Assembly (NCBI GenBank): GCA_963725665.1
Contig: CAVRZA010000001.1
Location: 352,001-416,000 of the forward strand
DNA from: an uncultured Actinomycetes bacterium
Lineage (GTDB): Bacteria; Actinomycetota; Thermoleophilia; UBA2241
DNA length: 64,000 nt
Direction: 5' to 3'
This document shows positions 40,046 through 57,512 of this stretch, piece by piece. Numbering within the stretch: position 1 is the first letter of the stretch; every line of letters begins with the position of its first letter. A program made the position numbers and the translations under genes. The notes under the pieces were generated by a model. The model ran no database searches. It worked only from the letters and a program-made list of their open reading frames with translations, and was not told the DNA's origin.

Positions 40046-40090
40046 TTGAAAAGGCGACGGACGGTCAGTACTGTACGCCCACCTAGGTGG
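40046..40090 (+). promoter_or_regulatory. Sigma70-type promoter with overlapping palindromes, heading the aminotransferase-AOR-larA-tetR-mttBC cluster
   Basis: TTGAAA (40046-51), 17-nt spacer, TACTGT (40069-74); CAGTACTG and CCACCTAGGTGG palindromes. Confidence 0.6.
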
Positions 40091-40173
40091 ATGACTTTGG
40101 GCGACGCCGCCGCGCGCCGGCCGGATACAGGCCCGGCCGGCGCGCGGCGGCGCTGGGCGAGAACGGAGGAGCC

Positions 40174-41550
40174 ATGACAGGGACCGTGGGCGAGCACGAC
40201 GTTGGCGCTCTCGAGGAGCAGTTCCTCGAGCACCTCTGGCCGCCCTTCACGCAGATGCAGGGCCTCAAGCCGGTTATCATCGAGCGCGGCGAGGGCGCCG
40301 TGGTCTACGACGCGCATGGCAAGCCTTACATCGACGCGTTCGCGAGCCTCTGGACGGTCAACGTGGGGCACGGGCGGCAGGAGATCATCGACGCCGTGGC
40401 TGCCCAGGGCAAGGAGCTCGCCTGTTACCACATGTTCGGCATCGCCAACCCGCCCTCGATCAAGCTGGCGGCCAAGATCGCTGAGCATCTGCCCGGTGAC
40501 CTCAACCACGTCTTCCTCACCCTGGGCGGCGGCGAGGCGGTGGAGACGGCCCTCAAGATCGCGCGCCAGTACTGGCGCAACAGGGGCAAGGGCGGCAAGT
40601 ACATGGTCTTCTACCGCGACCGCGCCTACCACGGCACGACCTTCGGCGTGACGAGCGCGCAGGGTCTGCCGCTCAACCGGCACAAGTTCGAGCCGCTGCT
40701 GCCCGGCTTCGTCAAGCTGGGCGCCCCGTACTGCTACCGCTGCGCCTGGGGCAAGACCTACGGCGAGTGCGCCATCGAGTGCGCAAAGGCCGTGGAGCAG
40801 GAGATTTCCTTCTACGGCGAGGAGAACGTCGGCACGCTACTGGGCGAGACGATGATCGGCACCGGCGGCGTCATCCCGCCGCCCCCGGAGTACTGGCCCC
40901 TGGTGCGCGAGATCTGCGACGCGCACGAGCTGCTGGTCATCAACGACGAGGTCATCACCGGGTTCGGGCGCGGCGGCACCTGGTTCGCATGCACGCAGTT
41001 CGGGAGCAAGCCCGACATGGTGACGATGGCCAAGGGTCTCTCGTCGGGTTACCTCCCTCTCGGCGCCGTCGGGGCCAGCGAAGGGGTGTTCGAGGCCTTC
41101 TTGGGCGAGCCCCTCGAGTTGAAGCAGTTCATGAGCGGTGCCACCTACCAGGGCCACCCGCTCTGCTCCGCCGCCGGCCTCGCCAACCTCGAGATCATCG
41201 AGCGCGAGAACCTGGTCGATCGCTGCCGCGAGCTGGGTCCGTACATGCAGGAGGGGCTGCGCAGCCTGCTCTCGCACGCCATCGTCGGCGATGTGCGCGG
41301 CATCGGCCTCGTGGCTGGCATCGAGTACGTGCAGGACAAGCAGACCAAGGAGTGGTTCCCGCCGGCGATCGGTGCCGCCGGCAAGGTGTTCGCCGAGGCC
41401 TTCCGGCGGGGCGTCTTCGTGCGCCTCCTGGGCGGCGGCAATGTGCACGCTATCGCGCCGCCGTTCATCATCAGTAAGGAGCAGATCGACACCATCGTGA
41501 GCGTGCTCGACGAGTCGATCGGCGTGGTCGAGATGGAGCTGGGCTACTAG
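40174..41550 (+). CDS. Class III PLP-dependent aminotransferase (omega-amine:pyruvate type)
   Basis: SLWTVNVGHG, AYHGTT, DEVITGFGR, TMAKGLSSGYLPLG, TYQGHP. Confidence 0.92.
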   Translation: MTGTVGEHDVGALEEQFLEHLWPPFTQMQGLKPVIIERGEGAVVYDAHGKPYIDAFASLWTVNVGHGRQEIIDAVAAQGKELACYHMFGIANPPSIKLAAKIAEHLPGDLNHVFLTLGGGEAVETALKIARQYWRNRGKGGKYMVFYRDRAYHGTTFGVTSAQGLPLNRHKFEPLLPGFVKLGAPYCYRCAWGKTYGECAIECAKAVEQEISFYGEENVGTLLGETMIGTGGVIPPPPEYWPLVREICDAHELLVINDEVITGFGRGGTWFACTQFGSKPDMVTMAKGLSSGYLPLGAVGASEGVFEAFLGEPLELKQFMSGATYQGHPLCSAAGLANLEIIERENLVDRCRELGPYMQEGLRSLLSHAIVGDVRGIGLVAGIEYVQDKQTKEWFPPAIGAAGKVFAEAFRRGVFVRLLGGGNVHAIAPPFIISKEQIDTIVSVLDESIGVVEMELGY

Positions 41551-41608
41551 CCTCCCTGGGCGGCCAGCTGTCACTCGCGCAGCAGAGCGGAGCAAGAAAG
41601 GAAGAAGG

Positions 41609-43396
41609 ATGGTCCACGTGCTGAGGGTCGACCTGTCGACCCGCACCACTCGTGAGGAGACGCTGCCGGCAGAGCTGACGCGTGACTACATCGGCACGAA
41701 GGGGATCGGCAGCCACCTGCTGCTGCAGGAGGTGGACCCCGGCATCGACCCGCTCGGTCCCGACGCCAAGCTCATCTTCTCGGCCGGCCCCCTCTCGGGG
41801 TCGACCATGCCCGGTACGGACCGCTACGCAGTCTACTTCCTTTCGCCTCTTACGGGAGGTTACGGCGAGGCCTACTCGGGCGGTAAGGTGGCGACGCAGT
41901 TCGCCCGCACCGGCTTCCGTATGGTGGTACTCGAAGGGAAGGCGTCCTCTCCGGTCTTCATCGAGGTCTCCGACGAGAAGGTCGCGATCCACCCGGCGGA
42001 CGATCTCTGGGGACTCGACTGCTACGAGGCCGAGGACCGACTCCTCGAGCGCGTCGGCGTGAGGAACGCCCAGGCCTGCGTGATCGGACCCGCCGGCGAG
42101 AAGCTCGTGCGCTTCGCCTGCATCCAGAACAACCGCACGCACAGCCTCGGGCGCGGCGGATGCGGCGCCGTCATGGGCTCCAAGAACGTCAAGGGGCTCG
42201 TGTTCCACGGCTCGACGAGGCCGGAGGTGGCGCGCCCCGACGAGCTCAAGGCCCTGGTCAAGGAGATGATCGCCAACGGCAAGGACCACCCCAGCGTCGC
42301 GGCCTACAACGCCAAGGGCACGGTGCAGATGGTGCGCCTCACCAACGGGGTCTCGATGTTCCCCACCCGCTACTGGACCAAGGGGCATCTCGACGACTTC
42401 GAGCCGCTCTCAGCCGAGACGATGATGGAGAAGTACAAGGTCGGCAACACGACGTGTCCGCCCTGCTTCATCGCCTGCGGGCACGTCTGCCGGGTGCCAG
42501 ACGGCGAGCTCGCCGGCCTCGAGATCGACGGACCGGAGTACGAGACCATCTTCGCCTTCGGAGGCCTTTGCGAGGTCGTCGACTTCGGCTACGTCATGCT
42601 CTACAACGACATCTGCGATCGCCAGGGCGTCGACACGATGAGCGCCGGCAACCTGTGCGGGCTGGCCATCGAGGCGTCGCGGCGCGGGCTCATCGACGAG
42701 GAGCTCGACTTCGGCGACGCCAAAGGCGTGCAGCGCTTCCTCGAGAAGATGTGCCGCCGCGAGGGCGTCGGCGACCTGTTCGCGGAGGGCATCCTGGCGG
42801 TCCAGAAGGAGCTCGGCCTCGAAAGCGTGGCCGTGCACGTCAAGGGCATGGAGCCGGCGGGCTACGACCCGCGCCGCTCGCGGGGCATGGGCTTAGGCTA
42901 CGTCGTCTCGGCCCGCGGCGCCTGTCACGCGCGGGCGACGTTCATGAAGCCCGAGCTGGCCGGCCTCATCGACATCAACACCACCGTCGGCAAGGGGGCC
43001 ATGTACGTCGACTACGAGGACCGCATGGCGATCCTCGACTGCATGGTCTTCTGCCGCTTCTACCGCGACCTGCTCGAGTGGGAGTTCCTCGCGCGGATCG
43101 TCAACGCCGCGGTGGGCACCGACTACTCCGTCGAGGAGCTGAGAGCCGTCGCCAACCGCATCGTCACCGAGACACACCGCTTCAACGAGCTGCGCGGCAT
43201 CGGTGGGGAGTCAGAGCACCTGCCGGCGTGGATCATCGACAACCCTATCGAGCACCACGACGGTGAGAAGCTGACCATCAGCGAGGAGCAGATGGAGACG
43301 ATGCGCCGCGATTACTATGCGGCGCGCGGCTGGGGCGTCCCCGGGGCTGAGACCCGGGATCGATCGGGCCCGAGAGGGGAGGCGAGACGAGCATGA
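41609..43396 (+). CDS. aor: Aldehyde:ferredoxin oxidoreductase (W/Mo-pterin)
   Basis: IGPAGEKLVRFA, GRGGCGAVMGSKN, CPPCFIACG, GPEYET, AGYDPR, RGACH. Confidence 0.92.
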   Translation: MVHVLRVDLSTRTTREETLPAELTRDYIGTKGIGSHLLLQEVDPGIDPLGPDAKLIFSAGPLSGSTMPGTDRYAVYFLSPLTGGYGEAYSGGKVATQFARTGFRMVVLEGKASSPVFIEVSDEKVAIHPADDLWGLDCYEAEDRLLERVGVRNAQACVIGPAGEKLVRFACIQNNRTHSLGRGGCGAVMGSKNVKGLVFHGSTRPEVARPDELKALVKEMIANGKDHPSVAAYNAKGTVQMVRLTNGVSMFPTRYWTKGHLDDFEPLSAETMMEKYKVGNTTCPPCFIACGHVCRVPDGELAGLEIDGPEYETIFAFGGLCEVVDFGYVMLYNDICDRQGVDTMSAGNLCGLAIEASRRGLIDEELDFGDAKGVQRFLEKMCRREGVGDLFAEGILAVQKELGLESVAVHVKGMEPAGYDPRRSRGMGLGYVVSARGACHARATFMKPELAGLIDINTTVGKGAMYVDYEDRMAILDCMVFCRFYRDLLEWEFLARIVNAAVGTDYSVEELRAVANRIVTETHRFNELRGIGGESEHLPAWIIDNPIEHHDGEKLTISEEQMETMRRDYYAARGWGVPGAETRDRSGPRGEARRA

Positions 43397-44760
43397 GCGG
43401 CGGAACCGGCGGCGGCCTCGTCCGGCTCGCGCTGCCCTACGGGCGCGGCGAGCAGCCGGTCGCCCTGCTCGATGACCGGCTGCTCGCCGTCGTGACGGGG
43501 GTCGCCGGCGCGGGCCAGGACGGCCACGCGGCCGGTGCACCCGACGAGCGCGCCGAGGTCGCTCGCGCGTTGCGCGAGCCGCTCGGCGCGCCGCCGCTCG
43601 CGACGCTGGCTCGGGAGGCGGCGTCAGCCGCCATCGTCGTGAGCGACGTCACGCGGCCCTGTCCGACCGCCCGCTTCTTGCCCGCTCTGCTCGATGAGCT
43701 CGCCGCCGTCGGCGACGAGGCGATCACGGTCATCTTCGCGCTCGGCAGCCATCGGCCGCACACGCGAGAAGAGCAGGAGGAGCTGGTCGGGCGCGAAGTG
43801 CTCGCGCGGGCGCGCGTGCTCGACCTCGACGCCGGCGATTGCACCTACGTGGGCACGACGAGCAGGGGCACGCGCGTGGAGGTCTTCCGTCCGTTCTTGG
43901 AGGCGGAGTTCAAGATCTGCACAGGCAACGTGGAATACCACTACTTCGCCGGCTTCAGCGGCGGGGTCAAAGCGGTCGTGCCCGGTCTCTGCTCGCGGGC
44001 GACGATCCAGGCGAACCACAGCATGATGCTCGCGCCCGCCGCGCGTGCCGGCGTCATCGAGGGCAATCCCGTGCGCGAGGACATCGACGAAGCCGGGGAG
44101 CTTCTCGGCGTCGGCTTTGCGTTCAACGTCGTCCTCGACGGGCGCAAGCGCATCGTGCGCGCCTTCGCCGGGCACCCGACCACGGCCTTCCGGGCCGCCG
44201 CCGCCTTCTACGACGAGCGCTTTGGCGTCACTGTGCCGGCGGCCGCCGACGTCGTGCTCGCCTCTCCCGGCGGCCGCCCCAAGGATATCAACCTCTACCA
44301 GGCGCAGAAGACCCTCGACAACGTGCGCGGCGCGGTGCGCAACGGCGGCGCCGTCATCCTGGTCGCCGAGTGCCCCGAGGGCTTCGGCGAGGCGACGTTC
44401 GAGCGCTGGATGCGCGAGATGACAACGCCGCAGGCGCTGGTCGAGCGCATCCAGCGCGAGTTCGTGCTGGGAGGCCACAAGGCGGCCGCCATCGCCGGCC
44501 TCTTGCGCACCGTCGACGTGTACCTCGTGTCGGCCTTCCCCGACGAGACGGTACGCCGGATGGGAATGACGCCGATGCCCCGCGCGCAGGCGGCGGTCGA
44601 GGCTGCGGCGGCCCGCTACGGGCCCGCCGCCACTTTCCTCGTCGTGCCGGACGGTACCAGGGTGAGCACCAGCGCCCAGGCGGGCAAGATACCGGCCCGG
44701 GCCTCGTCTTCTCCCGGCGCTGCCGCCTCCGAGTCGGTCGAGGCGGGAGCGGGGTCGTAG
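43393..44760 (+). CDS. larA: Nickel-pincer-dependent lactate racemase family (LarA) 2-hydroxyacid racemase/epimerase
   Basis: SDVTRP, ALGSHR, HYFAGFSGGVK, ANH, GNPVRED, DINLYQAQK, AECPEGFG. Confidence 0.88.
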   Translation: MSGGTGGGLVRLALPYGRGEQPVALLDDRLLAVVTGVAGAGQDGHAAGAPDERAEVARALREPLGAPPLATLAREAASAAIVVSDVTRPCPTARFLPALLDELAAVGDEAITVIFALGSHRPHTREEQEELVGREVLARARVLDLDAGDCTYVGTTSRGTRVEVFRPFLEAEFKICTGNVEYHYFAGFSGGVKAVVPGLCSRATIQANHSMMLAPAARAGVIEGNPVREDIDEAGELLGVGFAFNVVLDGRKRIVRAFAGHPTTAFRAAAAFYDERFGVTVPAAADVVLASPGGRPKDINLYQAQKTLDNVRGAVRNGGAVILVAECPEGFGEATFERWMREMTTPQALVERIQREFVLGGHKAAAIAGLLRTVDVYLVSAFPDETVRRMGMTPMPRAQAAVEAAAARYGPAATFLVVPDGTRVSTSAQAGKIPARASSSPGAAASESVEAGAGS

Positions 44761-44889: not shown

Positions 44890-45591
44890 ATGGGAGATGA
44901 GCCTCAAACGATGACGGCGATCAGAAAGTTGGAGAGGGAGCGCGGCGTCAGGGTGCCGTTCGACGACCCGTTCACCAGTCTGCCCGAGACGGCGCAGAGG
45001 ATCCTCGCCGCCGCCTCGAAGCTGCTGGCGAAGCGCGGCTACGAGGCGGTGACGCTCGAGAACGTGGCCCGCGAGGCCGGCGTCAACAAGGCGACCATCC
45101 GCTACAATTTCGGCAACAAGGCCGGGCTGATGACCGCCATCGTCGACGGGCTCATCCACGACGAGTGCCTGCGCATGGCCGCCGACCTCGACACGGTCGA
45201 CCAGGACGACCGGTTGGCCGCGGCGATGGAGGGGATCGGCGGCATGATCGTGAGCGCCGACTCCTTCAAGGGCTTCTTCGAGGTGCTGCCGCACGCCTTC
45301 CGCGACGAGGACTTGCGGGTGCGCCTCTTCGCCCTCTATCGCTGGTGGTACGGGTTGAACCTCAAGTGGCTGGGCTTGCCCGACGAGATCGACGAGGACA
45401 CCAACTACTACATCGTAGGGTTGGCGGAGCTCATCGCCGCCATCCCCGACGGACTCTCGATCCAGGCAGGCCTCGACCCGGGACATTTCGACGTCGCGCG
45501 CCCTCTGGCGGCTCTCGAGCTCCTGCTGCGCAACTCGATGAAGGAGCTGCGAGCCCTGGCCGAGGAGCGCGGCGGACGATCGCCACGGTGA
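44890..45591 (+). CDS. TetR/AcrR family transcriptional regulator
   Basis: RILAAA...GYEAVTLENVAREAGVNKATIRYNFGNK. Confidence 0.9.
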   Translation: MGDEPQTMTAIRKLERERGVRVPFDDPFTSLPETAQRILAAASKLLAKRGYEAVTLENVAREAGVNKATIRYNFGNKAGLMTAIVDGLIHDECLRMAADLDTVDQDDRLAAAMEGIGGMIVSADSFKGFFEVLPHAFRDEDLRVRLFALYRWWYGLNLKWLGLPDEIDEDTNYYIVGLAELIAAIPDGLSIQAGLDPGHFDVARPLAALELLLRNSMKELRALAEERGGRSPR

Positions 45592-45642
45592 CCGGCGAGC
45601 CTCATCACCGCCCACCCTTCCCACCGCGCAAGGAGGTGCCGA

Positions 45643-47130
45643 GTGAGACGAAACCAACACGCCGGGCGCAGGGGTAGCGCCGGCGCGAGCCTCAACCTGC
45701 TGAGCGACGACGACCTCCACGACATCCACCTCGCCACGCTCGAGGTGTTGGGGAGGACCGGCGTCTGGGTGGAGGATGAGGATGCGCGTCGCGTCTTCGC
45801 CAGCGCCGGGGCAGACGTCGACGAGGCCACCGGGGTGGTGAAGATCCCCTCCTACGTGGTGGAGGAGGCGGTACGCTCGGCGCCGCCGAAGTTCGTCGCC
45901 GCCGGGCGCGACCCCGCCAGGGATTTCGTCCTCGAGGCCGACCGCGTCGGCTTCACCAACTTCGGCGAGGGCGTGAAGCTCGTCGACCCGTTCACCGGGG
46001 AGCTGCGCCTGCCGGTCAAACGGGACGTGGCCGACACGGCCCGCGTCGTCGACTACCTCTCTGACGTCGACGTCTACGAGCGGGCCATCACGGCCGAGGA
46101 TGTCCCTCCTGAGAGCGCGCCGCTCCACCAGGCCGAGGCCTGGATGAGCAACACCACGAAGCCGGGCTTCATGGGCCCCATGAACGGCTACTTGCTTGAA
46201 CGGATCGCACAGATGGCCGAGGCCGTGCAGGGAGGCCCCGAGAAGCTACGTCGACGCCCGCTCGTCACCTTCGTGACGTGCCCCGTGAGCCCCTTGAAGC
46301 TCATCCGGGACTGCTGCGAGATCATCATGGGCGCGGCCAGACGTGGTCTCGGGGTGAACATCCTCTCGATGGCCATGGCAGGCGGATCCTCACCGGTCAC
46401 CCTGGCGGGGACCCTCGTCACCCACAACGCCGAGGTCCTGAGCGGCATCACGCTCAACCAGCTCACGAAGAAAGGGTCGCCGGTCGTCTACGGCAGCTCC
46501 ACCACGGCGATGGACCTGCGTTTCGCGGCCGCCTCGGTGGGCTCGCCGGAGTGCGCGCTGATCGGCGCCGCCGTCGCCCAACTGGCGCGCTTCTACCTGC
46601 TCCCCAGCTGGGTCGCCGGTGCGTAGGGGGACACCAAAGTGGTCGATGCCCAGAGCGGGCACGAGAAGACCCTGACCGCCTTGCTGCCAGCGTTGGCAGG
46701 CGCCAACCTGATCTACGGTCTGGGGATGATCGAGTCGGGCATGACCTTCGATTTCGGGCAGCTCGTCATGGACAACGAGTTCGCGCGCATGATCAAGTTC
46801 GCCGTCGGCGGCATCCCGGTGAACGACGAGACGCTGGCTGTGGACGTCATCGCGGAGGTGGGCGCCTTTGGGGACTTCCTCGGCCACGAGCACACGATGA
46901 AGCACATGCGCGAGCAGTCCCCGTCGGCGCTCCTCGACCGGCGCGTGCGCGAGGACTGGGAGGCCTCGGGGTCGACGACCCTCTACGACCGGGCGACCGC
47001 CAAGGCGCGTGAGATCCTCGAAAGCTATCGGCCCGAGCCGCTGCCCGAGAGCGTGGCCGCCGAGATGCGCGACATCATCGCCGACGCCGAGAAGGACCTG
47101 GGCGTGACGACTACCGTGGGGAGGGTGTGA
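45643..47130 (+). CDS. mttB: Pyrrolysine-containing trimethylamine:corrinoid methyltransferase (495 aa, amber codon 328 at 46624-46626)
   Basis: ORFs 45643..46626 and 46639..47130 share a frame and are separated only by TAG. Read-through gives SWVAGA-O-GDTKVVDAQSGHEK, matching the MttB pyrrolysine site. Also SMAMAGGSSPVTLAGTLVTHNAEVL. Confidence 0.93.
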
Positions 47131-47780
47131 TGTCCACCGCAGACTACCAGCGCCTCTCCGAGCTCATCATCGCCGGCGAGATGGAGGGCGCCAAGGCGCT
47201 CACCGAGCAGCTCCTCGCCCAGGGTCTTCCCGGGCGCGAGGTCCTCGATGGCGGCCTTCTGCCCGGCATGGAGGTCGTGGGCGCGCGCATGAAGGCCGGC
47301 GAGTGCTTCATCCCCGAGGTGCTCCTCTCTGCACGCACCATGCAGGGCTGCCTGGACCTCATCAAGCCCCACCTGGCGGCCGGCGACTCAGGCTCGGCCG
47401 GTACGGTGCTCATCGGCACCGTCGAGGGCGACGTGCACGACATCGGCAAGAACCTAGTCGCCATGCTGCTCGAGGGGGCCGGCTTCTCGGTCGTCAACTT
47501 GGGGGCCCAGATCAGCCCCGCCGCCTTCCTTGCCGCCGTTCGCGAGCACTCACCGCAGATCCTCGGCATGAGCGGTCTTCTGACCACCACCATCCCCAAG
47601 ATGGCCGACACCATCAAGCTGCTCAAGGACGAGGGCTTACGAGACGCCGTCAAGGTGATGGTCGGCGGCGCCCCGGTCACGCAGCGCTTCGCCGATGAGA
47701 TCGGCGCCGACGCCTACGGCGCCAACGCCGCCGCCGCCGTGGAGAAGGCCAAGGCGTTGCTGGGGACCCAGAGGGCGTAG
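47130..47780 (+). CDS. mttC: Methyltransferase cognate corrinoid protein
   Basis: FIPEVL cap domain, DVHDIGKNLV B12-binding motif, SGLLTTT, VMVGGAP; TGATG coupling to mttB. Confidence 0.92.
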   Translation: MSTADYQRLSELIIAGEMEGAKALTEQLLAQGLPGREVLDGGLLPGMEVVGARMKAGECFIPEVLLSARTMQGCLDLIKPHLAAGDSGSAGTVLIGTVEGDVHDIGKNLVAMLLEGAGFSVVNLGAQISPAAFLAAVREHSPQILGMSGLLTTTIPKMADTIKLLKDEGLRDAVKVMVGGAPVTQRFADEIGADAYGANAAAAVEKAKALLGTQRA

Positions 47781-47921: not shown

Positions 47922-50840
47922 ATGAGTGCCGTCGCGCTGCCCGATCCGAGCCCGGCCGGCCTCGCCGCCGCGCGCGAGCTTGCGCGGCGCGTGGCCGGGA
48001 GCGTCGACTGGCGACCGCTGACGCGCTGGCTCTACTCCACGGACTCCTCCATCTACCGGGTAGTGCCCGACGCCGTGCTCGTCGCCCGCTCGGTCGACGA
48101 CCTGGCGCTGGCTGCGGCGACGGCCGCCAAGCACGGCGTGCCGCTGGTAGCTCGCGGCGCCGCCACGAGCACCGCGGGGCAGGCCATCGGCGCGGGCATC
48201 GTCATCGACTGCTTCCACCTCGATCGCATCCTCGCCATCGACCCCGAGCGGCGCGTGGCTCGCGTCGAGCCCGGCGTCGTGCAGGCCTCCCTCAACGCTG
48301 CGGCGGCGCGGCACGGTCTCGAGTTCGGCCCCGACACCTCGACCGTCGACCAGGCCACCATCGGCGGCATGGTCGGCAACAACTCGTCGGGCTCGCGCTC
48401 GGTCGTCTACGGCGAGACGGTCGACAAGACGCTGCGCCTGTGTGCGGTGCTGGCCGACGGCAGCGAGGCCACCTTCGGGCCGTGTGAGGGAGACGACCTC
48501 GCCACGGGCCTCGACGGCCCGCGGGCGACGGCGCTAGCCAAGGGGCTTGGCGCGATGCGCGCCCGCTCGCGGTCGCGCATCGCCTCCAGCTTCCCGGAGA
48601 CGCGCCGCCGCTGCTCCGGCTACAGCCTTGACCGCCTCATCGAGCCGCGCCCGAACCTGGCTCGCCTACTGGCCGGCTCTGAGGGGACGCTCGCGCTGTT
48701 CACGGAGATCGAGGTGGAGCTCGACCGCCTGCCGGCGCTGCGTCTGACGGCCGGCCTCTCGTTCCCCACGCTGCGAGCGGCGCTCGACGCGAACCTGCAG
48801 ATCATGACCACCGGTCCCTCGGCCGTGGAGCTCCTCGACCTGGGGCCGCTGCGCCGCGCCCCCATGTTGCGTGGCTACCGTTTGATCGCTCCCCTGCTGG
48901 AGAGCGACGACGAGGCGGTGCTCCTCGTCGAGTACCAGGGGAGCGAGGATGAGGCGCGCGCCGGCCTCGAGCGCCTGCGTTCCGTCGCGGGGGGTCTGGG
49001 AGCGCGCCTGGTCGTCTACTTCGCCGACCCGCGCGCGGTGGCCCAAGCCTGGGAGCTGCGGCGGGCCGTGCTGCCGCTCCTCATGGGTGCGCCCGGCCGG
49101 CGGCGCCCGGCCGGCTTCGTCGAGGACACCGCCGTGGCTCCCGAGAAGCTGGGCGACTTCCTCGACGACTTTCGCCACCTCCTCGCACGGCGCGGCGTCG
49201 AGGCCTCGTTCACCGGGCACGCCTCGGCGGGCTGTCTGCACGTCCGGCCGCTGCTCGACCTCAAGACGGCCGAGGGCGTCGGAGAGCTGGAGGGGATCGC
49301 GCACGCGGTGGGCAAGCTCGTCCTGGAGTATCACGGCTCCCTGTCGGGCGAGCACGGCGACGGCATCGCGCGCTCCTGGTTCAACCCGCAGCTCTTCGGC
49401 CCCGAGCTCTACGCGGAGATGGTCGCCCTCAAGGAGCTCTTCGACCCCGACCGGCTGCTGGCCCCGGGGCGCGTGGTGGAGGGATCGCGGCCGGCCGAGC
49501 ACCTGCGCCTCGGGCCCTCCTACCGGGCACGGGCGCCGTGGCAGCCGCGCCTCGACCACGGCGTCGACGGCGGCTTCGACCTCGCCGTCGAGAGATGCTT
49601 CGGCGCCGGCCTCTGCAAGAAGCTGTCGGGCACCATGTGCCCTCCTGCCGCCGTCACGCGTGACGAGTCTCTCTCCACCCGCGCGCGGGCCAACGTGCTG
49701 CAGGCCCTCCTCGCCGGTGCGTTGCCGGTCGACACGCTGACCAGTGACGAGGTGCGCGAGGTCCTGGGCACCTGTCTCGCCTGTAAGGCGTGCAAGAACG
49801 AGTGCCCGGCCGGGGTGGACATGGCCGCGCTCAAAGCAGAGTGGCTGGCGGAGGTGCGCAGGCGGGAGGGCGTTCCCTTGCTCGCCCGCGGCATCGCCGA
49901 CTTCAGGCTGCTGGCGCGGCTGGCGGCGCCGGTCGCGCCGCTGGTCTCGGCGCTGGGCGCGACCGGCGCCGCCCGCGCCGTGCTCGCTCGCGCCGGGGTG
50001 GCGCGTGAGCGGCCGCTGCCGGTGATCGCGCGGCGGCCGCTCACGCGCCGCGTGCCCGGTCTTCCCGACGGGGATCGCTCCCGTGCGCGCGGCCGTCGGC
50101 GCGTCTACGCGACGAGCCCGACGGCGGCCCCCGAGGTCGTGCTCATGGCCGATTGCTTCGTCGAGCACCAGGAACCCGAGATCGGCGAGGCCTTCGTCCG
50201 TCTGCTCGGGGCGGCCGGCGTGCCGGTCGCCGCCGTCGACGCCGGCTGCTGCGGTCGGACGATGTTGTCGGCGGGGCGGCTCGAGCGGGCGCGCGGTTCA
50301 GCGCGGCGCTGCGCCGCCCGGCTGGCGGAGCACGCCGGAGCAGGGCGCACCGTCGCCTTCGTCGAGCCGAGCTGCCTCTCCATGGCGGTCGACGACTGGG
50401 CGCGCCTTCTACCCGGCGACGGCGACGCCGCCGCCGTCGCCGCCGCGGCGCGCCCGGCGTTGTCGGTGATCGCCGACCTGGCGGCCGCCGGCCGCCTCAC
50501 CTTCGCGGCCGGCGGCCGCGCGCTGCTGCACGCGCACTGCCACGAGAAGGCGCTGTACGGCAGCGACGAGACCGAGCGCGCCCTGCGCGCCGTGCCCGGT
50601 CTGGACCTCGACGTGCTCGACGCCGGCTGCTGTGGCATGTCGGGGGTCTTCGGCTACGAGGCGGAGCACTACGAGCTGAGTGTCGCCATCGCCGAGGATA
50701 GGCTGCTCCCGGCGGTTCGCGCGGCGGGGCCGGAGGTCGCAGTGCTGGCAACCGGCACCTCGTGCCGGGCACAGATCGGCGACCTCGGGCCCCGCCGCGC
50801 CGAGCACCCACTCGTGTTCCTCGCACGGCGCCTGCGTTGA
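47922..50840 (+). CDS. FAD-binding and Fe-S/CCG-domain oxidoreductase (GlcD-GlcF fusion, YdiJ-like 2-hydroxyacid dehydrogenase)
   Basis: ATIGGMVGNNSSG, GSEGTL, HASAGCLH, SGEHGDG, CLACKACKNECP, two CCG motifs. Confidence 0.9.
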   Translation: MSAVALPDPSPAGLAAARELARRVAGSVDWRPLTRWLYSTDSSIYRVVPDAVLVARSVDDLALAAATAAKHGVPLVARGAATSTAGQAIGAGIVIDCFHLDRILAIDPERRVARVEPGVVQASLNAAAARHGLEFGPDTSTVDQATIGGMVGNNSSGSRSVVYGETVDKTLRLCAVLADGSEATFGPCEGDDLATGLDGPRATALAKGLGAMRARSRSRIASSFPETRRRCSGYSLDRLIEPRPNLARLLAGSEGTLALFTEIEVELDRLPALRLTAGLSFPTLRAALDANLQIMTTGPSAVELLDLGPLRRAPMLRGYRLIAPLLESDDEAVLLVEYQGSEDEARAGLERLRSVAGGLGARLVVYFADPRAVAQAWELRRAVLPLLMGAPGRRRPAGFVEDTAVAPEKLGDFLDDFRHLLARRGVEASFTGHASAGCLHVRPLLDLKTAEGVGELEGIAHAVGKLVLEYHGSLSGEHGDGIARSWFNPQLFGPELYAEMVALKELFDPDRLLAPGRVVEGSRPAEHLRLGPSYRARAPWQPRLDHGVDGGFDLAVERCFGAGLCKKLSGTMCPPAAVTRDESLSTRARANVLQALLAGALPVDTLTSDEVREVLGTCLACKACKNECPAGVDMAALKAEWLAEVRRREGVPLLARGIADFRLLARLAAPVAPLVSALGATGAARAVLARAGVARERPLPVIARRPLTRRVPGLPDGDRSRARGRRRVYATSPTAAPEVVLMADCFVEHQEPEIGEAFVRLLGAAGVPVAAVDAGCCGRTMLSAGRLERARGSARRCAARLAEHAGAGRTVAFVEPSCLSMAVDDWARLLPGDGDAAAVAAAARPALSVIADLAAAGRLTFAAGGRALLHAHCHEKALYGSDETERALRAVPGLDLDVLDAGCCGMSGVFGYEAEHYELSVAIAEDRLLPAVRAAGPEVAVLATGTSCRAQIGDLGPRRAEHPLVFLARRLR

Positions 50841-53138: not shown

Positions 53139-53405
53139 ATGGCTGAAGCGGCATCAGAGCGCAAGAGGCGGGTGGCGAGCGAGCTCGCTATCGACCTCGA
53201 CCTCTGCAAGGCCTGCGGTATCTGCCTCGCCCTCTGTCCCCGCGATGTCTTCGACGCCGACGAGCGCGGCTACCCCGTCGTCGCGCGTCTCGAGGCCTGC
53301 ACCGTCTGTCGCATCTGCGAGTACCACTGCCCCGACTTCGCCATCTCGATCTCGTGGAGGGAGGAGCGGCGGCGCGTCACTGCGGACGACGCCGCGCGCG
53401 GGTGA
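53139..53405 (+). CDS. korD: 2-oxoacid:ferredoxin oxidoreductase delta subunit (2x[4Fe-4S] ferredoxin)
   Basis: CKACGICLALCP and CTVCRICEYHCPDFAI. Confidence 0.88.
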   Translation: MAEAASERKRRVASELAIDLDLCKACGICLALCPRDVFDADERGYPVVARLEACTVCRICEYHCPDFAISISWREERRRVTADDAARG

Positions 53406-54559
53406 TGCCGCAGCCGCGCCGCCTGGTGCAGGGCAACGAAGCGGTCGCCGAGGGGGCCATCGCCGCCGGCGCCCGCTTCTTCGCCGGCTACCCCATCACG
53501 CCCTCGACCGAGATCGCCGAGGTCCTCGCCCGCCGCCTGCCCGCAGTGGGCGGCCACTTCATCCAGATGGAGGACGAGATCGGCTCCATCGCGGCCGTCA
53601 TCGGCGCCTCGCTCGCCGGCACGAAGGCGCTCACCGCGACCTCGGGGCCGGGCTTCTCGCTCATGCAGGAGAGCATCGGTTACGCCGCCATGGCGCAGGT
53701 CCCCTGTGTCATCGTCGACGTCATGCGCGGCGGCCCCTCCACGGGGCTGCCTACGGAGCCCTCGCAGGGAGACGTCATGCAGGCGAGGTGGGGCACCCAC
53801 GGCGAGCACTCCATCATCGCCCTCGTGCCCAGCTCGGTGGCCGAGTGCTTCTCGCTCACCGTCGAAGCCTTCAACCTGGCCGAGCGCTTCCGCAGCCCAG
53901 TCATCATCCTCTCCGACGCCACCGTCGGCCACATGAGAGAGGCGGTGGAGCTGCCGTTGCCGGGTGAGATCATCGTGGTCGACAGGCCCGAGCCCCAGTG
54001 CGCGCCCGACGACGCGGCCTGCCGGATCCCTTCGGACGACGGCATCTACCCTCTCCCGGCGCTCGGCTCGCCGTACAAGCTTCACGTGACGGGCCTCGTC
54101 TACAACCTGGAGAGCGGCGCGCCGAACACGGGTGACGCGCGCGTGGCCCGAGACCTCGGTACCTACATGCGCGAGAAGATCTACCACCACCGCGACGACA
54201 TCGAGCGCGTCGAGGAGCTCGAGATGGAGGACGCCGAGGTGGCGCTCTTCGCCTACGGCTCCGTGGCGCGCTCGGCCAAGGCGGCATTGCGCTGGGGCCG
54301 GCGCCAGGGGGTCAAGGTCGGCCTCGTGCGTCCCATCACGCTGTGGCCCTTCCCCACGGCGGCCGTCGAGCACATGGCCGAGCAGGTGCGCACGGTCATC
54401 GTCCCCGAGATGAACTTAAGACAGATGGCCTGGGAGGTGCAGGCCGCGGTCAAGGGCCGCGCCAAGGTGGTCGACTACGGCCGCGTCGACGGCAAGCTGA
54501 TCCGCCCCGAAGAGATCCAGGACTCTCATCGAGAAGGAGTTCCACTATCACCGCTTTAG
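53405..54559 (+). CDS. korA: 2-oxoacid:ferredoxin oxidoreductase alpha subunit
   Basis: GNEAVA, FAGYPITPSTE, QMEDEI, ATSGPGFSLM, RGGPSTGLPT, VPEMN. Confidence 0.92.
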   Translation: MPQPRRLVQGNEAVAEGAIAAGARFFAGYPITPSTEIAEVLARRLPAVGGHFIQMEDEIGSIAAVIGASLAGTKALTATSGPGFSLMQESIGYAAMAQVPCVIVDVMRGGPSTGLPTEPSQGDVMQARWGTHGEHSIIALVPSSVAECFSLTVEAFNLAERFRSPVIILSDATVGHMREAVELPLPGEIIVVDRPEPQCAPDDAACRIPSDDGIYPLPALGSPYKLHVTGLVYNLESGAPNTGDARVARDLGTYMREKIYHHRDDIERVEELEMEDAEVALFAYGSVARSAKAALRWGRRQGVKVGLVRPITLWPFPTAAVEHMAEQVRTVIVPEMNLRQMAWEVQAAVKGRAKVVDYGRVDGKLIRPEEIQDSHREGVPLSPL

Positions 54560-54615
54560 TTGACGAAGAGCTCCTAGAGGCGCCGCCGCCCAAGGAGTGC
54601 GCGCCGCCGAAGGTC

Positions 54616-55428
54616 GTGCCCCACGCGACGTCCGAGATCAGGGCGCACCTGCGCTCCGCCACGACTCTCTGGTGCGCGGGGTGCTCGAACGGCATCGTCA
54701 CGCGCGCCATCATCGACGCCATCCTCGGTCTTAGGCTCGACAGCGAGAAGCTCGCGCTCATCGCCGGCATCGGCTGCGCCGGGCGCATCACCTCCTATCT
54801 CGACTACTCCACCGTGCACACGGCCCACGGCCGGGCGCTCGCGGTCGCGACTGGCGCCAAGGCCGCCGACCCCAGCCTGCAGATCGTCGTCGTCATGGGC
54901 GACGGCGACTGCGTGGCCATCGGCGGCAACCATCTCATCCACGCCGCGCGGCGCAACATCGATCTCACGGCGATCGTGTTCAACAACTCGATCTACGGCA
55001 TGACCGGCGGCCAGATGAGCCCCACGACCTTCGAGGGCGACCTCTCCACGACGAGTCCCTACGGCAACATCGAGCAGGCCTTCGATATCTGCGAACTGGC
55101 CCGTTCCGCGGGGGCGACCTACGTCGCCCGCGGCACCTCCTGGGCCTACCCGCAGCTGGTCGGCCTGATCGCCGGCGGCCTGGTACACAAGGGCTTCTCC
55201 TTCATCGAGGCGATGGTCGCCTGCCCCACCTACTACGGACGCCAGAACCAGGGCGCCGACCCGGCCGAGATGCTGCGCCGGCAGCGTGACCGCTCGGTGC
55301 CCGTGGCGACCTACAAGCCCGGACATCCTCGTCACCAGGACCGCTACCCCGTCGGCGTGCTCCACCACGCCGAGCGCGAGGAGTACACCGAGGCCTACGC
55401 GGAGGTCCAGCGGCGTGCCCGCTCCTGA
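54616..55428 (+). CDS. korB: 2-oxoacid:ferredoxin oxidoreductase beta subunit (start GTG 54616, or possibly ATC 54547)
   Basis: WCAGC, GIGC, HGRAL, TPP motif GDGD...NNSIYGMTGGQMSPTT. Confidence 0.92.
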   Translation: MPHATSEIRAHLRSATTLWCAGCSNGIVTRAIIDAILGLRLDSEKLALIAGIGCAGRITSYLDYSTVHTAHGRALAVATGAKAADPSLQIVVVMGDGDCVAIGGNHLIHAARRNIDLTAIVFNNSIYGMTGGQMSPTTFEGDLSTTSPYGNIEQAFDICELARSAGATYVARGTSWAYPQLVGLIAGGLVHKGFSFIEAMVACPTYYGRQNQGADPAEMLRRQRDRSVPVATYKPGHPRHQDRYPVGVLHHAEREEYTEAYAEVQRRARS

Positions 55429-56008
55429 CCAAGACGGGAAGGGCAGCGCGGTCGACCGCGGTGCTCGCTACGAGATCCGCCTCTCGGGCTCGGGCGGACA
55501 GGGCCTCATCCTCGCCGCCACGGTGCTCGCCGACGCCGTGGTCGCCTCGGGCAAGGAGGTCCTGCAGACGCAGAGCTACGGTCCCGAGGCGCGTGGGGGA
55601 GCCTCCAAGGCCGAGATCATCGTCTCCGACTCCGAGATCGACTTCCCCGAGGTCACCGCGCCCGATGTGACCCTCTGCCTCTCGCAGGAGGCCTTCGACA
55701 GCTACGCGGCCGAGACGAAGCCGGGCGGCGTGGTCGTGTACGACGAGGGACTTGTCGCTCCCCGGCCGCTCGAAGGGGTGCGCCTCTTCGGCCTGGCCTT
55801 CACCGACCTTGCCGAGCAGAAGCTCGGCAAGGTCGTGGCGGCCAACACGATCGCCCTGGGCGCGTTGCTTGAGGCGACCGGGCTGATGCCCGTCGAGCAG
55901 GTGCGCGACTCCCTGGAGCGGCTCCTGCCGGCGCGCTTCCTCGAGCTCAATCTCCGAGCGCTCGCGCTCGGCGTCGCCGCGTGCGAGCGCGGCGCAGCTT
56001 CCCCGTGA
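55415..56008 (+). CDS. korC: 2-oxoacid:ferredoxin oxidoreductase gamma subunit
   Basis: SGSGGQG, QSYGPEARGG, ANTIALG; RBS GGAGG. Confidence 0.9.
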   Translation: MPAPDQDGKGSAVDRGARYEIRLSGSGGQGLILAATVLADAVVASGKEVLQTQSYGPEARGGASKAEIIVSDSEIDFPEVTAPDVTLCLSQEAFDSYAAETKPGGVVVYDEGLVAPRPLEGVRLFGLAFTDLAEQKLGKVVAANTIALGALLEATGLMPVEQVRDSLERLLPARFLELNLRALALGVAACERGAASP

Positions 56009-56184
56009 ACGTCGTCATCATCGTCACGGGCATCATCGGCCTGGCGGTAGCGGCCTACGCCCTCATCGACCTCGCCATGGCGGCCGGTCCGCGGCGCCGC
56101 CTCCTCGACGTCGCACTCGTCATCGCCGCCGCGGCGGCCACCATCGCGGCGCTCCTCACCTGGGGCGACCGGCTGCTGCAGTAG
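56005..56184 (+). CDS. Small two-TM membrane protein
   Basis: GTGA overlap with korC; two hydrophobic helices. Confidence 0.6.
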   Translation: MNVVIIVTGIIGLAVAAYALIDLAMAAGPRRRLLDVALVIAAAAATIAALLTWGDRLLQ

Positions 56185-56317
56185 TCGCTTCCTCCTAAGG
56201 CGAACGTCCCGCTCTGCCGATACCAGGCCTGTGCCTCCCGCCTGGCGAGCGGGCACGCGGGTATGTCCTGCCCGGCGGGTGGGTTCCCGGGACGATGTTG
56301 GGCGAAGAAGCGAGAGT

Positions 56318-56908
56318 ATGGGAAAGCGCAGGATACTGGTCGTCGACGACAACCCCGACGTCCTCCGCCTCGTCGACGAGGCGCTGACAATGGCCGGCTA
56401 CGAGGTGACGACCGCGGCGTGTGGAGCGGAGGGGGTGAGCAGGGGCGGCATGTGCCTGCCCGATCTCGTCCTGCTCGACATCATGATGCCCGACGCCGAT
56501 GGCTACACGGTTTACGAGCGGCTGCGGGCCAAGCCGACGCCGGGGCTCAACTGCCCCATCATCTTCTTGACGGCCCACAAAGACATCGACCACAAGCTGC
56601 TGGGCTTCCAGAAGGGAGCCGTCGACTACATCACCAAGCCCTTCCACGTCAGGGAGCTGCTCGCTCGCGTGAAGGTGCACCTGCACGAAGTGGAGCCGCC
56701 CTCCGGCGACGTCCCCAACCCGCTGACCGACCGCGAGCGGGAGGTCGTGGCTCTGCTCGCGGGGGGCAAGACCTACAAGCAGGTCGCGCGTGCGCTACGT
56801 CTGTCGCAGAGCACGGTGCGCAATCACCTGCACAACGTCTACCACAAGCTCGACGTGGTCGACCGTGCGCAGGCGGTCATCGTGAGTCGCGACAACGGGT
56901 GGATCTAG
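56318..56908 (+). CDS. Response regulator with C-terminal LuxR-type HTH
   Basis: VVDDN, LLDIMMP, YITKPF, LTDREREV...TVRNHLHNVYHKL. Confidence 0.9.
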   Translation: MGKRRILVVDDNPDVLRLVDEALTMAGYEVTTAACGAEGVSRGGMCLPDLVLLDIMMPDADGYTVYERLRAKPTPGLNCPIIFLTAHKDIDHKLLGFQKGAVDYITKPFHVRELLARVKVHLHEVEPPSGDVPNPLTDREREVVALLAGGKTYKQVARALRLSQSTVRNHLHNVYHKLDVVDRAQAVIVSRDNGWI

Positions 56909-56988
56909 GCGGACGTCGCCGCGGGGCGGCTAGTGCCGGGTGAGGCTGCAGCAGGCTCCGGTCGACCCGAGCGGCGCGCCGTCGACTC

Positions 56989-57252
56989 TCAGGATGCCGA
57001 GAAAGGCCGCTGAGTCTCGAAGGGCATCTCGGGCAGCACCCAGTCGCCGACCGCGCGCCGACGATCGCTGCGGCGACGCTCGGGTAGCACGGCCTGCTCG
57101 ATCGCGCGGCGCTCACCCCAGCGCCGGTCGACGAGGATGGTCACATCGGAGCGACCCGCGTAGCGCCGGCAGAGACGGTCGTAGAAGAATTCCTCCAGAC
57201 CTCTCGGGATGATGATCACTTTCTTCCTCCCGGCCGCTGCCGACTCGCGCAT
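56989..57252 (-). CDS. Small protein with Arg-rich DRR/ERR repeats
   Basis: Strong RBS AGGAGGTG before ATG 57252; VDRRWGERR...ERRRSDRRR. Confidence 0.65.
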   Translation of the reverse strand: MRESAAAGRKKVIIIPRGLEEFFYDRLCRRYAGRSDVTILVDRRWGERRAIEQAVLPERRRSDRRRAVGDWVLPEMPFETQRPFSAS

Positions 57253-57512
57253 GGTCACCTCCTGGGACTCTTGCCTGGCCATGTAGTTCGCGCCGACCGC
57301 CGGCCTCTCCTGCCGCGCGGTGTCCCAGCGACGATGATATCCCCCCGGCCTGGAGCACGTGGAGGACCGCGGGTGACCACGTGGTGTCTGGGCAGGCTAC
57401 AGGCGTCGCCGATTGACGCGGCTGACGCAAGCGGGGCTGCGTGCTCGAAATTCGCGGTGCTAGCGGAAGCGCGCCCGAGTACAATGTGAAAGCCAGCGAC
57501 CTTGGAGCCCCA

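Follow-up and report, generated by a model that had tools for sequence, protein, structure and literature searches.

The amber codon of an mttB gene from the Thermoleophilia and a conserved mRNA signature at pyrrolysine codons

Introduction

In the stretch of 64,000 nucleotides analysed here (positions 352,001 to 416,000 of contig CAVRZA010000001.1, from an uncultured bacterium; hereafter the window), the gene mttB, for a trimethylamine:corrinoid methyltransferase, is interrupted by a TAG codon and followed by the gene of a corrinoid protein, mttC. A preliminary description of the window, made from its letters without database searches, proposed that this TAG encodes pyrrolysine (Pyl). The locus raises the question of whether this is so and, if it is, how a UAG meant for Pyl is told from a UAG meant as a stop, for which no mechanism is known according to the available passages of PMC12626013 (here and below, statements on published work refer to such passages of the sources cited).

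The mttB-mttC locus

A strong ribosome-binding site (45630..45637, plus strand) precedes the GTG with which the mttB frame starts at 45643; under genetic code table 11 the frame ends after 327 residues at the TAG of 46624-46626. When this TAG is taken as a residue, the frame extends to the TGA of 47128-47130 and encodes 495 residues (45643..47130, plus strand), the sole TAG being codon 328; the residues around it read VAGA-TAG-GDTKVVDAQSGHEK. The single amber codon, the length and the VAGA context given in the preliminary description were thus borne out by translation. The read-through product scores 737 bits against TIGR02369 (cut-off 525) and aligns end to end with MttB of Methanosarcina barkeri, the in-frame UAG falling in the column of Pyl334; in the PDB entries 7xcl and 7xcn the codon aligns to X (Pyl), and in 7xcm, matched with an E value of 1e-123, to K. 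Residues G108, M243, Y358 and G366 correspond to G110, M249, Y364 and G372 of M. barkeri, of which G110 and Y364 are called fully conserved (PMC9842639), and the position of T111 is occupied by E109. The locus is therefore like the M. barkeri MttB/MttC system (PDB 7XCL, 7XCM, 7XCN; PMC9842639) in length, Pyl column, these four residues and the cognate corrinoid protein; it differs in its bacterial host, in a methyl acceptor that would be tetrahydrofolate rather than coenzyme M, and in the change of T111 to E. It also differs from the sense-codon members of the MttB superfamily (MtgB type) by the TAG at the Pyl column.

The gene mttC (47130..47780, plus strand) begins with an ATG at 47130 that shares the last base of the mttB read-through stop, and ends with its own TAG at 47778-47780. 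Its product of 216 residues has the DxHxxG motif and both B12 domains (PF02310/PF02607), and scores 184 bits against TIGR02370, under the cut-off of 215. The corrinoid gene described as coupled to mttB is indeed placed so, and the overlap of one base would tie its translation to ribosomes that read through the UAG. At third codon positions mttB and mttC have GC contents (GC3) of 0.91 and 0.92, close to the genome median of 0.90, so that the codon use is native, as had been stated.

Pyrrolysine genes of the host genome

The host genome comprises 3.73 Mb in 12 contigs, and is 97.5% complete with a contamination estimate of 5.0%. No tRNA was found in the 64-kb window; in the genome, however, all six genes for Pyl that the preliminary description had placed outside the window are present. 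Contig C6 carries pylSc (296212), pylSn (298890) and pylB, pylC and pylD (343829-347028), all over their NCBIfam cut-offs, and directly 3' of pylD lies pylT, with a CUA anticodon and a cloverleaf fold; pylT was found by ARAGORN and folding, and an Rfam search around it at the gathering threshold returned nothing. From established knowledge of the chemistry of these proteins, Pyl would be made from lysine by PylB, PylC and PylD, the split PylSn/PylSc would charge tRNA-Pyl(CUA), and the ribosome, with release factor 1 as the competitor, would then place Pyl at codon 328.

Fourteen methyltransferase genes of the genome carry TAG at the Pyl site of their family: five mttB, eight mtbB and one mtmB. 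One of the eight mtbB, apparently frameshifted, has only 398 residues, and the four mtbB that were scanned all pass TIGR02368. The MttB paralogues are 52-64% identical among themselves, and the range is 50-71% for the five MttB and eight MtbB overall. Among 31 MttB-like matches in the genome, 26 have no internal stop and belong to a class of 24-37% identity. The methyltransferase repertoire of the host includes about 25 non-Pyl genes of the MttB superfamily and 13 corrinoid proteins, and some relatives have up to 101 candidates. Homologues of the MtmB family that lack the TAG are found at C11:266038, C4:197061 and C4:222297, as well as at L207 and L210; they are 27-29% identical to the Pyl copy, each adjoins a corrinoid gene, and they may be non-Pyl MtmB-like methyltransferases. 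A genome-wide coding score past TAG, used to look for more Pyl proteins, returned mostly adjacent in-frame genes.

Most of the 30 loci compared keep the order amidase, pylSc, corrinoid gene. A radical SAM gene (C6:297996-298874, L007), retained in many family members at 70-75% identity, separates the corrinoid gene from pylSn. The interval between pylSn and pylBCD (C6:318800-322600, L008) contains glycine/sarcosine/betaine reductase genes (PF07355, PF09338), in which a TGA ends the GrdB domain; tRNA-Sec and SelB (both on C11) and a GrdB-type reductase are also in the genome. From the Pyl genes, the TGA in the GrdB gene, tRNA-Sec and SelB it is likely that the host uses 22 amino acids, and betaine reductase could be a source of trimethylamine. 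Autoregulation through the terminal TAG of the pyl genes was considered and rejected, since the stops of pylSc at the same place are TAG in 19 cases, TGA in 12 and TAA in 2; a hairpin-like match 3' of pylSn falls within the 3% background.

Two other frames with internal TAG were seen. A tyrosine-integrase-like frame (C1:513200-514500, L106) has TAG in frame twice and is otherwise free of stops and frameshifts, with no hairpin called after either TAG; it is a pseudogene, or else its ambers are tolerated by Pyl read-through as in the transposases of Methanosarcina. A remnant of a VWA-like gene (C11:71800-72063), with a frameshift and an in-frame TAG, is probably a pseudogene.

Taxonomic placement and spread of the trait

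The 16S rRNA of the host is 97% identical to that of genome L009, an uncultured Actinomycetes, and the first 600 residues of RpoB are 89% identical to L009 and 85% to L010 (an uncultured Thermoleophilia); identity to two other families of the class is 69%. These nearest named matches place the host, an uncultured anaerobe, in the class Thermoleophilia, in agreement with the actinobacterial origin suspected at the outset; for its order or family UBA2241 is a tentative suggestion. Among 400 genomes of the class, pylSc was detected in 73 of the 79 genomes of the host's own family, in 9/61 of one other family, and in none of 260 genomes from ten more families. Matches over the TIGR02369 cut-off occur in 84/89 family genomes and over the TIGR02368 cut-off in 85/89, with TAG in every mttB and every mtbB among the matches listed; MtmB matches at E 1e-100 occur in 13/89, and 12 of 15 among those listed have the TAG. 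Contigs that align to the locus at 80% likeness come from relatives, and no change at the mttB TAG is found among the rows listed. A search of sequencing runs for the locus returned small shares only, with no RNA run among those listed.

A quick tree of 48 proteins groups 17 Pyl-MttB of the family in one clade (SH-aLRT 100) and places the MttB copies of the second family among those of Bacillota, which suggests one old gain with later duplication in the host's family, and for the second family a gain of its own. Loss seems to be coordinated: two genomes of the family (G005 and G017, 98% complete) are without pylSc, pylB and mtbB, and their MttB are only of the TAG-less kind. Both are small members, of 1.7-1.8 Mb. 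Another genome (G047) keeps pylSc and one mtbB and has no mttB match.

It could still be asked if mttB is a pseudogene, a nonsense mutation or an assembly error, given that TAG is the normal stop of 37% of the genes in a genome with a contamination estimate of 5%. The same TAG is, however, present in all five paralogues and in every family match among those listed, which makes chance or a sequencing error untenable and settles the doubt, kept in view by the preliminary description, that the codon here is really a sense codon. Moreover, the second half of the gene is intact, the pyl set is full, synteny is conserved and GC3 is native. The alignment to the Pyl column, the pyl genes and the family-wide TAG refute this reading, whose probability is negligible. 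It is therefore highly probable that codon 328 is decoded as Pyl and, with slightly less assurance, very likely that mttB is a full-length gene for a Pyl-containing MttB.

UAG as a common stop codon

TAG ends 1102 of the 2967 called genes of at least 100 residues (37%), the calls being rough, from a simple custom caller. Among 195 gene ends confirmed by an orthologue whose stop lies within 5 residues, 93 are TAG, and in 63 of 104 pairs such a TAG end faces a TGA or TAA in the orthologue. The genes that stop at TAG include tuf, fusA, rpoA, rpoC, rplA and rplJ (named from sequence), and also pylSc, pylSn, pylD and mttC. Back-up stops are not commoner after TAG than after TGA. Depletion of TAG was not seen in three pylSc-positive kin (56/149, 39/156 and 30/80 stops), and four pylSc-negative kin gave 29/147, 36/152, 26/108 and 33/108; these counts come from samples of 120-200 kb and are too few to claim enrichment. 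A code of the archaeal type, in which all TAG would mean Pyl, is ruled out by the 37% share and the 93/195 confirmed ends; the share is above that of Pyl archaea, reported as 1-27% with a median of 5% (PMC12626013). UAG has thus a dual meaning in the host, as a stop in more than 1000 genes and as Pyl in about 14. After the TAG of rpoA (C2:113743-115035) rplQ follows at once in frame, and after that of rpsC (C2:102903-104093) rplP is in frame four codons later; untargeted read-through at these sites would yield fusion proteins.

A codon and hairpin signature at Pyl codons

The codons around the amber codon of mttB were compared in 52 distinct sequences, 45 of them from the family or two named near kin, 5 from the second family and 2 from Bacillota. 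Just three internal columns out of 495 hold mostly rare codons: GGT at position -2 from the TAG (45/52), TTG at +23 (47/52) and GCA at +24 (51/52). In the window, the conserved 5' context is Gly GGT followed by Ala GCG (46618..46623, plus strand), and the codons TTG and GCA belong to a 6-bp mRNA hairpin with an AGGC tetraloop (46692..46707, plus strand), a candidate read-through element. For mtbB (n=60) the rare-codon columns are -1, with TTG or TTA in 59/60, +26, with GGA in 60/60, and a weaker one at +39. The codon before the TAG is a TTG or TTA for Leu in mtmB also (11/11). Where these dipeptides recur, in other parts of the genome or of the genes themselves, the signature codons are used at 4-10%, and Leu before true TAG stops is encoded by TTG in 14 of 94 cases. 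Codon-pair bias and avoidance of the GCCGGC palindrome were rejected as causes of the rare codons on the basis of a codon-pair context test.

The mttB hairpin has six pairs, spans nucleotides +66 to +81 after the TAG with an A-G-G-N loop, and appears in the best and the centroid folds of the window sequence. That of mtbB, a gene whose product is not homologous to MttB (PMC9842639), has seven pairs, from +71 to +88, and an A-G-A-Y loop; mtbB also has a weaker hairpin closer to the TAG (+14 to +26), with 78.5% pairing. A simple descriptor finds the hairpin after 13 of the 14 Pyl TAGs of the host versus 32/1097 true TAG stops and 33/1709 TGA stops, and synonymous recoding retains it at 0.6-14%. 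In relatives the hairpin is present in 41/41, 5/5 and, for Bacillota, 19/33 mttB, and in 56/56, 1/1 and 25/30 mtbB. It is absent from three close TAG-less homologues, in which the Pyl site is a sense codon, and two of these are nested in the Pyl clade. In a genome-wide scan no gene beyond the Pyl methyltransferases combines the 5' context and the hairpin.

The positions, chosen on the host family, were then tested in the phylum of the Eubacteriales genome L011 (Bacillota), where mttB was found in 23/301 and mtbB in 15/301 genomes; 30 loci of each, with GC3 from 0.27 to 0.79, were used, rows more than 90% alike were dropped, and the expectation was taken from each gene's own codon use. In mtbB, TTG stands at -1 in 26/26 (5.3 expected), GGA at +26 in 25/28 (6.1), and CTG in 22/26 (6.9); in mttB, GCA is found in 19/26 (7.3 expected) and TTG in 14/26 (4.7 expected). 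Cells in which both sides of a pair are changed in a compensatory manner number 13 versus 4.8 in shuffles for mttB (n=50) and 57 versus 20.5 for mtbB (n=55), and none of 500 shuffles reaches the observed counts. Both families thus show covariation in a conserved structure that goes with the recoded codon, and the mRNA signature at Pyl codons is under selection.

Two MttB within the Pyl clade (L216 in genome G103 and L235 in G487) carry Ala or His in place of Pyl, and the hairpin is gone from both; as natural revertants they are useful controls.

Rfam holds PYLIS families for these genes, PYLIS_1 (RF01982) being that of mtmB. The window scores 68.1 bits against PYLIS_3 (RF02510, mttB; gathering threshold 38), a structure that does not contain the mttB hairpin and against which TAG-less homologues score nearly as well (62 and 64 bits); PYLIS_2 (RF02509, mtbB) already includes the distal mtbB hairpin. 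A region of 161 nucleotides of the window folds no better than shuffles (z 0.31), which argues against a large stable PYLIS. The source paper of PYLIS describes a structure for mtbB and no common structure in mttB (PMC3639795), and the shared A-G-R-N loop, its spacing and the fixed 5' codon do not appear in its available passages. An earlier study found no common RNA structure in the Pyl genes of bacteria and called for further searches (PMC1976440), and it has been stated that Pyl needs no insertion element (PMC13663744). The hairpin differs from a SECIS-like element in that it is not in all recoded genes of the host, as the count of 13/14 indicates. A printed mutagenesis primer for M. barkeri has GCC and not GCA at the Ala that matches +24 (PMC9842639), one hint that archaeal mttB lacks the A of the loop.

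Several points weigh against the readings given so far. The evidence for Pyl in MttB comes from gene sequences, and pyl genes by themselves do not prove an expansion of the code (PMC12626013); in one family genome (G113, 93% complete) both mttB and mtbB carry the TAG although neither pylSc nor pylB was matched, probably because a contig is missing. The change of T111 to E and the identity of just 52-64% among the five MttB paralogues leave trimethylamine as a presumed substrate. As to the signature, the hairpin is absent from mtmB (0/12), whose own small hairpin, at about +88 to +102, is of another kind, and from 14/33 Bacillota mttB, and its loop lies far beyond the footprint of a ribosome at the UAG. 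The number of pairs with compensatory changes is not above that of shuffles, and relatedness inflates measures of covariation; RNAalifold predicted three pairs for mtbB and, for the mixed mttB set, no structure. Finally, the descriptor was derived from these same genes, and kin are not independent.

What the signature does can be explained in two ways. The 5' codons and the hairpin may tilt the competition at UAG toward Pyl, through a bound factor or slowed termination; that the signature directly raises read-through is a tentative proposal, rated a little under an even chance. On the other hand, Pyl could be inserted without a site-specific signal, read-through being set by the supply of Pyl-tRNA and by methylamine-induced pyl expression, as has been described for Acetohalobium arabaticum and Methanosarcina acetivorans, and the codons and hairpin serving instead for protection of the transcript (from Rho or RNases) once translation has ended early, binding of a regulator or pacing of translation; we give this a probability somewhat short of one half. 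Expression of the pyl genes is probably substrate-controlled in the host, as in Acetohalobium arabaticum, which turns them on with trimethylamine (PMC11467909), and a supply-and-demand model with no known targeting mechanism has been put forward (PMC12626013; PMC13663744). The absence of the hairpin from mtmB and many Bacillota mttB, and its distance from the decoding ribosome, agree with insertion without a signal, and so do the TetR paralogues beside mttB and mtbB, which suggest control by substrate. A TetR-family gene (44890..45591, plus strand; PF00440), whose product is probably the local regulator, lies directly 5' of mttB, and a paralogue (43%) sits 5' of one mtbB copy in the same genome; neighbourhoods of tetR with mttB or mtbB that resemble the window are found at L051, L066, L076 and L278. 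No sigma-70 promoter and no sense-strand terminator were found. Insertion by supply alone is less easily reconciled with a constraint that, in two non-homologous families, covers just the immediate neighbours of the TAG and the following 40 codons, takes in the P-site codon itself and is lost in homologues without TAG; furthermore, TAG ends tuf, fusA, rpoA and rpoC without back-up stops, so that untargeted suppression would be costly. The broader proposal of a targeting signature is that bacteria with common UAG stops mark their Pyl codons by the P-site and E-site codons and an A-G-R-N hairpin about 70-80 nucleotides downstream, an arrangement that would have arisen in two non-homologous families and is shared by Actinomycetota and Bacillota; this too is advanced with caution, as nearly an even matter.

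Methylamine and C1 metabolism

Following established chemistry, Pyl of MttB would activate trimethylamine and the methyl group would pass to the cobalt of the coupled MttC. Dimethylamine and monomethylamine would then be handled by the amber-bearing MtbB and MtmB, down to ammonium, if the paralogues have the substrates of their families; mtmB-mtmC adjoin an ammonium transporter gene. Trimethylamine is probably the substrate of the window copy, as judged from its sequence. A less likely alternative, to which we would give about one chance in a few, is that Pyl is present and this paralogue uses another tertiary or N-methylated amine, the 14 Pyl enzymes having diversified in substrate. The expansion of five MttB and eight MtbB (50-71%) within the family would fit such diversification, as would the location of mttB behind aminotransferase, aldehyde oxidoreductase and racemase genes and the change of T111 to E. 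However, MttB is over the equivalog cut-off and keeps the residues equivalent to G110, M249, Y364 and G372; E is the commonest residue at position 109 in Pyl-MttB of Bacillota (19/30), and relatives cluster mttB with mtbB and mttC.

The same-strand genes 5' of mttB (40087-44760) encode a class III aminotransferase, an aldehyde ferredoxin oxidoreductase and a LarA-family racemase, and the one 3' of mttB-mttC (47922-50840) a YdiJ-like FAD/Fe-S dehydrogenase; the stretch is possibly an amine catabolic region. Further on, at 53354-60218, are found subunits of a 2-oxoacid:ferredoxin oxidoreductase and the alpha subunit of a formate dehydrogenase, which passes the TIGR01591 cut-off and has no internal TGA.

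The genes of the Wood-Ljungdahl pathway, to which the preliminary description had pointed, are present. A cluster on contig C2 contains cooS, acsB, acsD and acsC, all over cut-off, an AcsV-like activase, cooC (named from sequence, with no match at E 1e-30) and an acsE-like methyltransferase just below cut-off; fhs, folD and metF are encoded outside the cluster. Methyl groups from the corrinoid proteins would pass to tetrahydrofolate and through this pathway to acetyl-CoA or CO2, both the flux and the corrinoid:tetrahydrofolate enzyme being presumed. A gene near mtbB-mtbC (C3:264225-265028) resembles a pterin-binding methyltransferase in sequence and is a candidate for the latter. The expectation of a RamA activase fared differently: for the two activase candidates TIGR04270 (cut-off 500) gives 117 and 124, and AcsV (cut-off 800) gives 648 and 409, so that no RamA over cut-off was found among the two scanned, no genome-wide search for RamA having been made. 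Both appear to be of the AcsV/RACo type rather than RamA, a further difference from the M. barkeri system.

Comparison with other bacteria and significance

Split PylSn/PylSc, frequent UAG stops and a genome with both Pyl and Sec are features that the host shares with A. arabaticum, Desulfitobacterium hafniense, Bilophila and marine Deltaproteobacteria (PMC11467909, PMC7593587, PMC8318568, PMC1976440); it differs from them in belonging to a high-GC actinobacterial family in which pylSc is near-universal. Its 14 Pyl genes compare with 8 in the Olavius symbiont (PMC1976440). PylRS has been reported in two Actinobacteria (PMC9630628), and metagenome-assembled genomes of Actinobacteriota from Stordalen Mire express Pyl-mttB and mtbB (PMC10805028), one genus of that work, Bog-752, being Thermoleophilia UBA2241 in its supplement. 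These cases concern the same trait in the same phylum, so that the window mttB adds to a known trait: the Pyl use first proposed for this locus stands, and the surprise attached to it was overrated. Family-wide distribution, pyl inventory, stop-codon use and codon context are not in the available passages of either paper. Our literature search, whose coverage excluded subscription journals and bioRxiv supplements, returned no paper on the shared hairpin or on family-wide Pyl in Thermoleophilia.

What this analysis adds is the 37% share of TAG stops beside 14 Pyl genes, and the codon and hairpin signature across two phyla and two gene families. Against the extreme codon bias of the host family, synonymous sites under selection are conspicuous and give exact mutations to test. 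If the proposal is true, this would be a bacterial signal for Pyl insertion that PylSn or a factor not yet known might recognise, with a family of Thermoleophilia as its cleanest natural example, and a working signal would aid site-specific amber suppression in genetic code expansion. Annotation with table 11 splits all these Pyl methyltransferase genes. A family with pylSc in 73/79 genomes, and mostly with several Pyl methyltransferases, could rival methanogens for methylamines.

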